Shown: positions 30,792-35,520, counted from the stretch's first letter. The stretch: DNA of 64,000 nucleotides from Spirochaetia bacterium (GCA_965263295.1 OZ253665.1:832001-896000); one strand, 5' to 3'. Program-made: numbers and translations. Notes: a model not told the origin generated them from the sequence alone.

Positions 30792-31101
30792 GTGTATTTC
30801 GTGGTTCCTTTCACAGTCCCTGGCCAAGTAACCACGAAATACACTAAAAAGTACGAACGACACGAAAAACCCTAAAACACCGCGCCTACTCCCTGGACGC
30901 CCCCCGCGCCTCACGTCGTCCATCCGGCCCCTTTTTTTCTGTCACCCACAGCCCCCCAGCCTAGATTTCGTGCCCTTTCGCTGTCTTCGTGCCCTTTCGT
31001 GGTCCCCTTTAAAGTTTCCCTGTCACCCGCGGCTCCCCCGTCTAGATTTCGTGACCTTTCGCCGTCTTCGTGCCTTTCGTGGTCCCCCTTTCGTGGTCCC
31101 C
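30792..31101. repeat. CACGAA/TTCGTG inverted-repeat element, copy A (MITE/REP-like)
   Basis: 15-bp IR 30792-30806/30830-30844; internal 81-bp-period duplication at 30939/31020; shares ctggccaagtaaccacgaaa, cctggacgccccccgc and ccgcggctcccccgtcta with copy B. Confidence 0.85.
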
Positions 31102-31109
31102 CAAAAACC

Positions 31110-31142
31110 AAAAAAGCGAGCAACCTTAAAGGCTACTCGCTT
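31110..31142 (-). terminator. Intrinsic terminator of the 1298-aa lipoprotein gene
   Basis: Minus strand aagcgagtagcctt-t-aaggttgctcgctt followed by Ts. Confidence 0.75.
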
Positions 31143-31205
31143 GCGCGGCTCGTCATATCAACGGCAGAAATTCATGCCAATTAACGTTCCATCTTCTCCG
31201 CCTCT

Positions 31206-34200
31206 CTAGAAGGGCTTGAAGCCCTCCCACCCATCGTAAAATTTTCTAGTCTTAGCACCTCGCGGCAAACTTTCTGCATTATAGCTATCTGTCAATATGG
31301 CCTGGACTTCATAAATAGCGGGACCCAAAATAGGATTATCAATTAGAACTTCATCCTGTATCCTTGAATGGGTTAAGTTCTTCTTTTCATCCCCAGCAGT
31401 CCTCCAATTGGATATCCTATGATAGTACGGAGGATTGAGATGGTCGAAAGTGAAATCGCCCCGGTGTTTTTTATATATCCACCGGACTCTCAACAATTTC
31501 TCTCCCTCGGGGTCTTCTCCTCCAACCAGAGTAAATTTATAATAACGATATCTATAAGACGTTTCAGTTTTTTGCCTCCAGAATCCCGACATCTGAACTG
31601 AAGCCCTAGTGGAACCGTCATATCCCATTTTCACGGTGGAACCGTCATATCCCATTGCCAAAGCGAGACTTCGCGCATGGGGATCTTCTAGAAAACTGCC
31701 ATCGTACCTAAGATATTCCGCTATCATTCTAGTCGGCTGTGTTGGCGCCACGTTTACGTGCACCGTATTGGGAATTGTGCCAGAACTGGCGATACCATCG
31801 CTCACCGTCACCTCAACTACCGCACGGTGGCGATCAGGCATACTCATCGCTGCAATCTCATTCTTACTCAGATCCCTTAGCGGCGAGAACACAGCCAAGC
31901 TTACTTCCCGGCCTGTTTCATCTTGAGGCACGCCATTGACCGCCCAGCTGTAAGTCAACGTATCGCCCTCGGCGTCAGTACCCTCCACAGCGAATTTCAC
32001 GTCCTGAGAAGAATTTATGTCCTGAAAATTAAGCCTTACGTCGCTTAAATCACCAGAACGATCAAAAAGCTTTGGCTTCACATTCACGTGCAGTCTTCGA
32101 GATATGGGCACTCCCGAACTCCCGCCATTTTGCTCCTTCACCGTTGCTGTCACCACCACCACGTGGCGCGCATCGGCGCTGGGGACGAGCTCGATAATCG
32201 CTTCAATCTTATCCTGACTAAAACCCTTTAGCGGCGAGTACAAGGTCAGGCTTGCTTCCGGGCCTGTTTCGCCTGTCTGCTCCACACCATTGACCGCCCA
32301 GCTGTAAGTCAACGTATCACCCTCGACGTCAGTAGCCTCCACAGTGAAGGCCTGTGGCTCTGTGCCAGTATTTATATCCGCAAGCTGAAACCATTCATCC
32401 TCTGCAACCGTAGCATCCCCAAACTCAAGCGTCGGCTTCACATTCACGTACAGTTTTCGAAATTGCGACTCGCTCTCCCCCATGTCATCCGTCACCGTTA
32501 CTATCACCATCAACTCGTGGCGCTCATCGGCGCTCATCGCTTCAATCACATCCTGACTCAAACCCTTTAGCGGCGAGTACAAGGTCAGGTTGGCTTCCGG
32601 GCCTGTTTCGCCTTTCTGAATCTTGTTATTGACCGCCCAGCTGTAGGTGAGCTCTCCGCCATCTTCGTCATGGCCTTGAACAATGAAGGTCTGTGGCTCC
32701 GTAGGATCATTCACGTCTTCAAGCTGCAACCATTTACCATCTGCAACCGTAGCATCCGCAAACTCTAGCGTTGGCGCACGGTTGGGCTGCAGGGTCAAGC
32801 CGTAGGTTGCCTCGGCACTGCCGCCGTCCTCATCCGTGACCGTCACCCGCACCTGATACGGATCCTCATTTGAAGCAAGTGCCTTCGTTGCCAGCGTAAA
32901 AGCCTCTGTCTGCGCGCCTCGCGTCCAGTCGCCAGCCCCAGGTGCCTGGTACTCCCACTGGTATCTAAAACCCTCACTTGATTCCTCGTCGCTCACATTC
33001 ACGGCAAACCCAATATCCTGGCCCACCCTGGCCGTGCTGGAGTCTCCGCTTGAAGGCTTCGTAAAATTAGCAATCCTTGGCGCCACATTCACGTACAGCG
33101 TTCGAAATTTCTTCGAGCTCATCCCCATGGCATCCGTCACCGTTACTTTTACCAGAACCTCGTGGTGCTCATCGGTGCTCATCGCTTCAATCTCATCCTG
33201 ACTCAAACCCTTTAGCGGCGAGTACAAGGTCAGGTTGGCTTCCGGGCCTGTTTCGCCTTCCTGCTCCACACCATTGACCGTCCAGCTGTAGGTCAGCTCT
33301 CCGCCATCTTCGTCCCGAGCCAAAACTTTAAAGGCCTGCGGCTCCGTAGGATCATTCACGTCTTCAAGCTGCAACCATTTACCATCTGCAACCGTGCCAT
33401 CCAGAAAGCTAATCTCCGGCGCATCGTTAGGCTCCAAGGTCAACTGGTAAACCGCCTCGGCACTGCCGCCGTCTTCATCCTTAACCGTCACCCGCACTTG
33501 ATACGGATCCTCACTTGCTGCAAAACCCTTCGTTGCCAGCGTAAAAGCCTCTGTCTGCGCGCCTTGCGTCCAGTCGCCAGCCCCAGGTGCCCGGGACTCC
33601 CACTGGTATCTAAAACCCTCACTTGATTCCTCGTCGCTCACAGTCACTGCAAAGTCGACAGTTTCGCCCGCCCTGGCCGTGCCAGAGTTCCCAGCCGTCG
33701 GCTGCGCAAAGCTCAGCTCCGGCTGCGCATTCAGCTGCACTTCCACGCTATCTGCCCCAGCGGATGCCGGCTGCGCCGCCTGGCCATGCTCATCCTGCGC
33801 CTCAACCTTAACCAAGTAGCGGCCCGCCCTTTCGCTAAACTGATACTCCAGGCTCGCTCCCTCGCCTATTATATGGGACGATTCAGACCAGTCGCCATTG
33901 TCGTCTTGGTCGTCTTGGTCGTCTTGGTCTTCTTGCGCATACAGATGCCAAGTGTAACTTAGCCCCTCAGCTTCTCCATCAACCACGGCCTCAAATGTCA
34001 TACTTGGCTTTTCACCACTAGCCAGCTGCAAAATCTGCGATCCCGACGGGTTGACAACCCGCAAGCCAGCTGGCGCCACCTTGAAATCAAATTTTCGCTC
34101 GGCCGTCGCCCTACCATCGCGGTCATCGCTGACCTCAACTTTTACCGTCTTTATACCCGGATTTTCAGCTGTAAAAGTGAATTTCGCAGAACCTTGGGTA

Positions 34201-35102: not shown

Positions 35103-35231
35103 ATCTGTATCCTCCTTATAAAAAGAATGTGGGCTACAAATTTTAAATGAGGAACGATATGAAATAGAAAATAATAATATTGGTTCGCAGGCACGGGCAA
35201 ACTTGCCAATAGAAGCGCCTACAACAGCTCT

Positions 35232-35260
35232 AGTATATTGCCCAAAACCAACTTTGGCAA
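35232..35260 (-). promoter_or_regulatory. Sigma70-type promoter of the 1298-aa lipoprotein
   Basis: TTGCCA-17 bp-TATACT on the minus strand. Confidence 0.65.
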
Positions 35261-35311
35261 GTATTTTTCAAATATTTTACAAAATATTTTCGCCTTTCCC
35301 CTTCGGAGACT

Positions 35312-35520
35312 CTGGCCAAGTAACCACGAAAAACACTAAAAAAAATACAAAACAACACGAAAAATTCTAAAATTCTAAAGAGCCCATCCGCCTGGACGCC
35401 CCCCGCAGCCCCCCATCGTTTCCCCCGCGGCTCCCCCGTCTAAATTTCGTGCCTTTTCGCCACCTTTCGTGCTTTTCGTGGTTACTCTTTCGTGTACTTT
35501 CGTGATCCCCTTGTCGTGGA
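35312..35520. repeat. CACGAA/TTCGTG inverted-repeat element, copy B
   Basis: 14-bp perfect IR agtaaccacgaaaa (35319-35332) / ttttcgtggttact (35473-35486); direct-repeat homologue of copy A. Confidence 0.85.

Follow-up and report, generated by a model that had tools for sequence, protein, structure and literature searches.

We analysed a 64-kb stretch of a Spirochaetia bacterium genome (GCA_965263295.1, OZ253665.1:832001-896000; hereafter the window, at its full length) and focused on two non-coding elements, A (30792-31101) and B (35312-35520), which enclose the gene of a large predicted lipoprotein. The source genome (G000) is a single 2.41-Mb contig (C1) from an assembly that is 92.6% complete. 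We found that A and B belong to an element family present at 68 loci of this genome, and that the elements are very probably gene-less derivatives of the ends of a cassette that carries a GxxExxY nuclease gene. With some reserve, we favour the reading that these cassette-end derivatives have been reshuffled and are likely to serve as recombination handles in the copying of lipoprotein and accessory genes to other places, a process that the nuclease is predicted to start.

The two elements were recovered at the positions given in the initial annotation and are homologous: 166 of 210 paired positions match in the alignment (score 153; the best of 200 shuffles reached 34), and the three strings reported as common occur once in each copy (30820/35312, 30892/35391 and 31027/35425) and nowhere else in the window. 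The description of CACGAA motifs facing TTCGTG motifs with inverted repeats of 14–15 bp held, with one correction. Perfect inverted repeats exist in both, 15 bp long in A (30792-30806 with 30830-30844) and 14 bp long in B (35319-35332 with 35473-35486). In B the repeat joins one end of the element to the other, whereas in A it is an outward TTCGTG...CACGAA junction hairpin at the left end. Between the elements we detected, as proposed, one transcription unit made of a consensus promoter, an open reading frame (ORF) of 1298 amino acids and a terminator-like hairpin, and each copy does lie just upstream of a giant-lipoprotein gene, within ~45 bp of a lipoprotein promoter match. The parts are listed below in window coordinates.

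30792..30844, plus strand: left junction hairpin of A (TTCGTG stub, spacer and start of the CACGAA module), with the 15-bp perfect inverted repeat
30830..30877, plus strand: L module of A (CACGAA units); the same module adjoins the GxxExxY stop codon at G000:C1:1901341
30878..30960, plus strand: C-rich filler of A
30961..31101, plus strand: two R modules of A (TTCGTG units); the same module is found upstream of the GxxExxY gene
31114..31142, minus strand: terminator-like hairpin of the enclosed gene, from a consensus scan only
31206..35102, minus strand: enclosed gene, predicted 1298-aa lipoprotein (lipobox; PKD/Ig repeats), one of eight dispersed close paralogues
35232..35260, minus strand: sigma-70-type promoter match (10/12) of the enclosed gene, from a consensus scan only
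35297..35372, plus strand: spacer and L module of B
35373..35439, plus strand: filler of B, a variant that recurs only at C1:989032, 2000627 and 2085693
35440..35520, plus strand: R module of B and extra TTCGTG units, with the 14-bp inverted repeat to the L end
27191..30545, minus strand: left neighbour, large predicted lipoprotein (promoter match 30747-30720)

A search of the genome with L and R profiles located 68 loci, which together hold 83 L modules and 159 R modules; the reversed genome gave none. A and B accordingly belong to a large family and do not form an isolated pair. The modules of a locus share a single polarity, the sole opposite-strand matches being three short L matches inside R runs of the largest array. 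The basic unit, which we parsed completely in 61 cases, consists of a ~25-bp spacer, an L module, a C-rich filler of 30–225 bp and an R module, that is, terminal inverted repeats around non-coding DNA; gene-free arrays of 1.2–4.3 kb are also present. The G-rich strand of the element is the locally G-rich strand at 53 of the 68 loci, with a replichore bias of 18/25 and 35/43. A DNA search of three same-genus genomes (G001-G003) did not find the family. An 18-base pattern had 90 exact matches in the source genome, 7 in G001 and at most one in each of 39 other relatives, a 19-base pattern had 59 matches in the source genome and one match across 300 other genomes of the phylum, and a 25-base element pattern gave no match in an exact search of metagenome contigs. 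The family has expanded in this genome far beyond its relatives, into mosaic arrays.

The very probable source of the element ends is the sole GxxExxY gene of the genome (PF13366/TIGR04256, 148 bits), located at C1:1901341-1901742 on the minus strand, ~1 Mb from the window, within a 4.3-kb tandem element array that is the densest of all. An L module touches its stop codon, and an R module with filler lies upstream. Since the gene is framed in this way and sits inside an array, the dispersed unit corresponds to L...R with the gene replaced by filler. The same association was found well outside this genome, in a sample of 80 GxxExxY loci from many phyla (62–81% identity): at least two CACGAA motifs occurred upstream in 55 of the 80 loci vs 1 of 70 control windows, and at least two TTCGTG motifs downstream in 51 of the 80 vs 1 of 71. 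In a quick tree of 82 proteins, all with an adjacent repeat word, the word classes were clustered (7 changes vs a shuffled mean of 14.6), although no more than one branch was strongly supported. The connection to GxxExxY genes, which the initial annotation had suggested, was thus confirmed both on the single gene of this genome and on homologues elsewhere; the connection to four-helix-bundle genes, suggested with it, was not, as PF05635 gave one weak sub-cut-off match, far from the arrays.

The GxxExxY protein is a predicted nuclease that keeps its catalytic residues. Residues G35, E38, E48, D78, K90, Q102 and Y106 were invariant in 61 sequences, and the structure, predicted with high confidence (predicted local distance difference test, pLDDT, 90.9), has a PD-(D/E)XK fold, with the Cas4 protein SSO0001 as nearest fold (Foldseek E 1e-4; VIA-align Z 8.0, root-mean-square deviation 4.2, 100 residues; many near-ties). 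A PDB sequence search with the GxxExxY profile returned weak matches only (T7 endonuclease I, E 0.03). As the sequence matches are weak and the VIA-align Z is at most 8.0 with many near-ties, no specific subfamily or activity can be assigned. PDDEXK_3 is entered as a family of function unknown with multiple transfers (PMC3424549), and our literature searches, which mostly covered papers outside subscription, returned no account of a GxxExxY gene-plus-repeat unit; a paper on TAACTGA repeats (PMC4679880) had no bearing on the family.

We also observed that GxxExxY cassettes often stand directly upstream of type I/III restriction-modification genes (loci L003, L012, L017 and many of L042-L121; names by reading of the flanks). 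G002 has a distant GxxExxY gene among restriction-modification genes (L179, C1:400000-419999 of that genome; also L180), which adjoins tandem arrays of an unrelated CTGAACC...GGTTCAG repeat, with a few further copies in one region 2 Mb away. This repeat was considered as a flank of coiled-coil paralogues and rejected: it did not flank them in the three G002 loci compared, and its copies are confined to two regions.

We searched for other enzymes that could move the elements. In agreement with the initial annotation, the Pfam scan of the 47 window ORFs contained no transposase or recombinase family, and DprA was present. The searches for RAYT, tyrosine recombinase and GxxExxY genes proposed there gave, besides the one GxxExxY gene, only two tyrosine recombinases in the genome (PF00589), XerC/XerD-like by sequence reading and far from the arrays. 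Y1 HUH/RAYT transposases (PF01797) were not found in the 92.6% complete genome, with a control that was positive in 6 of 14, and IS110 and resolvase gave no match in the same assembly, DDE families standing outside the genome-wide search. That a conventional transposase of the DDE, IS110 or Y1/RAYT type moves the elements as miniature inverted-repeat transposable elements (MITEs) or REPINs is therefore very unlikely, in spite of their terminal inverted repeats around variable filler and of degraded insertion-sequence-like remnants elsewhere in the genome. These remnants, which we take to be IS5, have different ends and none of the three borders an element, the element ends match those of the GxxExxY cassette, and the 32 complete loci gave no excess of target-site duplications (mean longest common word 5.06 vs 4.97 in controls); short ones could be hidden by the ragged ends of the elements.

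An integron-type cassette array with attC-like sites, as first suggested, is less credible still. It would account for the direct repeats that bracket single genes and for one array of eight small genes with elements between them. The only tyrosine recombinases are XerC/XerD-like, however, the enclosed genes each come with a promoter and a terminator, and the genes of that array are copies of one gene and not diverse cassettes. The proposed folding of whole copies as single-stranded DNA was carried out, with a marginal outcome (z -2.05 and -1.69), and in an Rfam scan of the window the elements had no match, a single tRNA being the only one.

The elements are tied to duplicated and surface-protein genes across the genome. 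For this analysis we used our own set of 1737 gene calls and our own lipobox rule, defined recent paralogues by at least 70% identity over 80 amino acids, and compared 66 intergenic gaps containing an element with 572 element-free gaps of at least 150 bp. A recent paralogue adjoined 39 of the 66 element gaps vs 26 of the 572 element-free ones, and a lipobox gene 30/66 vs 87/572, which supports the proposal of a MITE-like element linked to surface-protein genes. In the three largest families of recent paralogues (9, 7 and 5 genes) all 21 members border an element; smaller families are mixed. Elements flank 25 genes on both sides, the nuclease gene and an 8-gene array included, and 24 of these are in direct orientation. 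Of 30 pairs of neighbouring loci less than 5 kb apart, 29 lie on the same strand (19 of 20 if the big array is set aside), vs 20 of 37 pairs of distant neighbours, an agreement beyond what the replichore bias explains.

This distribution also bears on a regulatory reading, in which the elements are multi-site operators or structural sites for a regulator, possibly the GxxExxY protein itself, that co-regulates surface-protein genes. The closeness of A and B to lipoprotein promoters and the phased repeats of one hexamer are in its favour. We consider it improbable, as 16 of the 66 element gaps lie 3' of genes or between convergent genes, gene-free arrays extend over kilobases, the search of three same-genus genomes did not recover the family and the protein keeps the catalytic residues of a nuclease; the origin of the elements and their mosaic arrays would also stay unexplained.

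Several duplicated genes deserve description. At C1:1907142-1912982 we found eight near-identical small-protein genes with an element at each junction; 17 kb off, two elements enclose a ninth copy (C1:1929963-1930355); the protein has a variable number of EQVDKRF heptads and a hydrophobic C-terminal tail. Five dispersed coiled-coil genes (C1:133144, 683002, 731957, 898428 and 1453667) gave weak, sub-cut-off matches to YraN-like (PD-(D/E)XK) proteins. Their family, with 3–13 matches per same-genus genome, may spread on its own. Finally, a phage remnant with a Mu F-like head protein and tail-like genes is duplicated at C1:723066-729561 and 1913075-1918414; the copies are 96% identical and one end lies at an element.

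Signs of recombination were found both inside the elements and at the borders of duplicated genes. Among distant units, the similarities of spacer, L, filler and R are uncorrelated (61 complete units; rho -0.08 to 0.14), which could also result from a burst off one master copy. The 112 R modules combine recurring blocks in 86 different ways, the blocks being no more than weakly linked (Cramer V 0.34-0.48 vs 0.21-0.28 when shuffled). In particular, the two copies of a duplicated 0.7-kb unit with a coiled-coil gene (C1:133135-133798 and 682993-683689, 92.5%) end 1–5 bp from an element on either side, and a filler variant known at two sites only lies upstream of the first copy of this unit and downstream of the second. 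Similarly, the B filler is found upstream of three paralogues of the enclosed lipoprotein gene and on the far downstream side of a fourth. Such side-swapped fillers are expected if a circle of element and gene re-enters at another copy. A few junctions break within or next to AACCAC, the homology of one paralogue ending exactly after it and that of another just inside, which suggests AACCAC as a candidate cut site; decay could mimic this pattern.

The window unit gives a similar picture. The enclosed gene has seven dispersed close paralogues in the genome, and their 5' DNA homology ends just before B in three, enters B in three and stops exactly after the terminal AACCAC in one further paralogue. 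Over L, filler and first R, A does not differ from the copies at C1:810987 and C1:2000910, with exact runs of 182 and 217 bases, and both of these lie on the 3' side of a paralogous lipoprotein gene. The copies most similar to B (71 exact bases) lie on the 5' side of two other paralogues, and all three other sites of its filler variant adjoin paralogues of the enclosed gene. Judged by these matches, each element has moved together with the end of the lipoprotein gene that it adjoins. In two paralogues a longer common upstream sequence is preserved with no element in it, so that B was gained after that promoter existed.

In the mechanism that we propose, the GxxExxY nuclease would nick or cut at or near the terminal AACCAC motif, and repair by recombination with another copy would spread and shuffle the modules. 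Exchange between two copies around a gene would free a unit of element and gene, probably as a circle, and this could re-enter at another copy, leaving the gene between direct repeats. The window unit is read as the product of such events and not as a cassette that excises often today.

The expected traces of present-day excision were not seen. The contigs listed for four runs, which come from two studies, contained no empty site and no circle junction flanked by unique DNA on each side, either at the window or at five further element loci; at the latter, a run with strain-level differences keeps the elements. These contigs showed no rearrangement between strains. As contigs break at repeats, these negatives are weak; excision of a 4.5-kb unit, as initially envisaged, is nonetheless not borne out by them. 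Of the 15 joints listed (of 45), 11 skip 4.2–4.5 kb from A to B; we rejected them as excision products, as they lie inside element sequence with a short side of at most 35 letters, as other copies would give. A depth of the gene-specific contig ~30% lower than that of the bacA side, in three runs, was also rejected, the AT-rich flank outside the unit being equally low. A comparison with relatives, along the lines proposed, showed genomes too rearranged for an empty site to be inferred: the bacA-dprA pair is kept in G001-G003 with different upstream neighbours in each. None of the four same-genus genomes shares its order of genes near bacA and the aminotransferase gene with another, the order being scrambled among them.

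Further observations weigh against recombination handles as we propose them. The side swap amounts to two cases, and in several duplications just one of the two ends lies at an element. Four of the eight lipoprotein paralogues have no complete 5' element and one has no 3' element. The longest exact run common to A and B is 20 bases and each is closest to other copies, so that A and B did not arise by recent duplication of a single site. The enrichment counts are non-independent (nine genes form one family, eight of them in one array) and depend on our own gene calls and lipobox rule. Moreover, G002 and G003, which lack the repeat, have 13 and 11 matches to the small coiled-coil gene, and G001 and G002 have several giant lipoprotein homologues; same-genus genomes thus multiply these genes without the repeat, and the elements are not required for the families to multiply.

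The alternative best served by these observations is hitch-hiking, in which cassette-derived elements persist or insert beside non-essential variable genes and an unrelated duplication carries the adjacent element along. The multiplication of homologous genes in G002 and G003, the closest copies of A lying 3' and those of B lying 5' of paralogues, as co-duplication predicts, the late gain of B and the lack of empty sites in the listed contigs all agree with it. We regard it as a serious but rather unlikely account, since hitch-hiking alone leaves unexplained the direct orientation of close pairs as opposed to distant ones, the 0.7-kb unit with an element at either end and otherwise unrelated surroundings, the side-swapped filler and the 8-gene array with an element at each junction.

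A stronger version of the recombination-handle reading can also be formulated. A horizontally acquired cassette would then have become a gene-shuffling system in which a Cas4-like nuclease cuts the AACCAC ends of ~70 dispersed arrays and drives the excision, amplification and re-insertion of element-bounded surface-lipoprotein genes via circles, with no transposase or site-specific recombinase; combined with (TA)n switches, this would make a two-tier system of surface variation. We put this forward as a speculative possibility, about as doubtful as hitch-hiking. The (TA)n tracts are an observation in their own right: (TA)9-14 tracts lie within the signal-peptide coding region of at least eight large lipoprotein genes, at the following positions.

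Window 30481-30508; G000:C1:18122, 317624, 722810, 1046804, 1922792, 2106648 and 2330208: (TA)n tracts

Some of these tracts are read through in frame; those in the window and at C1:1046804 are not. The (TA)14 tract of the window (30481-30508) separates the likely start of the left neighbour from its lipobox frame. The tracts look like sites of slipped-strand phase variation. The window contains further repeats: the left neighbour lipoprotein has a 195-bp unit six times in tandem (28472-29746), a pair of leucine-rich-repeat genes consists of units of 63 bp and has common 5' ends (13225-17765), and a perfect 31-bp inverted repeat without loop lies near the tRNA gene (62272-62333).

We finally compared the family with known systems. 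The GxxExxY gene of this genome is a full member of the GxxExxY/PDDEXK_3 family with the usual inverted CACGAA/TTCGTG ends. Unlike the typical locus, with its short ends and short hairpins, its ends here have fillers of 30–220 bp and occur at 68 loci; to the GxxExxY-repeat picture this genome adds the association with duplicated surface genes and the signature of side-swapped fillers. In IS26-type pseudo-compound transposons and translocatable units, near-identical elements encode a DDE transposase. As in those units, genes here lie between directly oriented copies and element and cargo would move as one, whereas our elements are non-coding and diverged. Integron attC cassettes likewise place single genes between direct copies of a palindromic site; here no integron integrase was found, the cargo has its own promoter and the fold of the whole element is marginal.

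The layout is similar to that of REPIN-RAYT systems (Bertels and Rainey 2011, PMC3116915): one coding gene per genome with an adjacent repeat cluster, many gene-less copies with two inverted end motifs around a spacer, and tandem and nested clusters. In contrast, the gene here encodes a PD-(D/E)XK nuclease and not a Y1 HUH transposase, of which none was found, the ends are phased hexamer arrays and not REP (repetitive extragenic palindromic) hairpins, with marginal folding of the whole element, and the copies are mosaic and concentrated at duplicated genes. The neisserial intergenic mosaic element (NIME) arrays of dRS3 repeats are associated with surface-protein genes, were proposed to promote recombination and have a postulated specific recombinase, according to Bentley et al. 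2007 (PMC1797815). Our arrays share with them, on that description, the mosaic non-coding structure, short inverted repeats, variable fillers and a location near surface-protein genes. The element consensus differs from the dRS3 pattern given in PMC1797815 and is unrelated in sequence. In Neisseria, as described there, alleles are exchanged with DNA that enters the cell and a phage encodes the candidate enzyme, whereas the arrays here border dispersed duplicates within one genome and the candidate enzyme is encoded inside an array. The family therefore combines a REPIN-RAYT-like layout with a NIME-like tie to surface genes, yet the features that define either system were not found.

GxxExxY proteins are widespread, and the literature searched does not describe their function. 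With one intact gene, ~70 gene-less loci, a candidate cut site and duplicated surface genes, this genome is an unusually clean test case. If the nuclease does drive the spread of the elements, it would represent a new enzyme class for REPIN-like elements, and the arrays would be an equivalent of the NIME arrays outside Neisseria, one for which the long-postulated enzyme is available.

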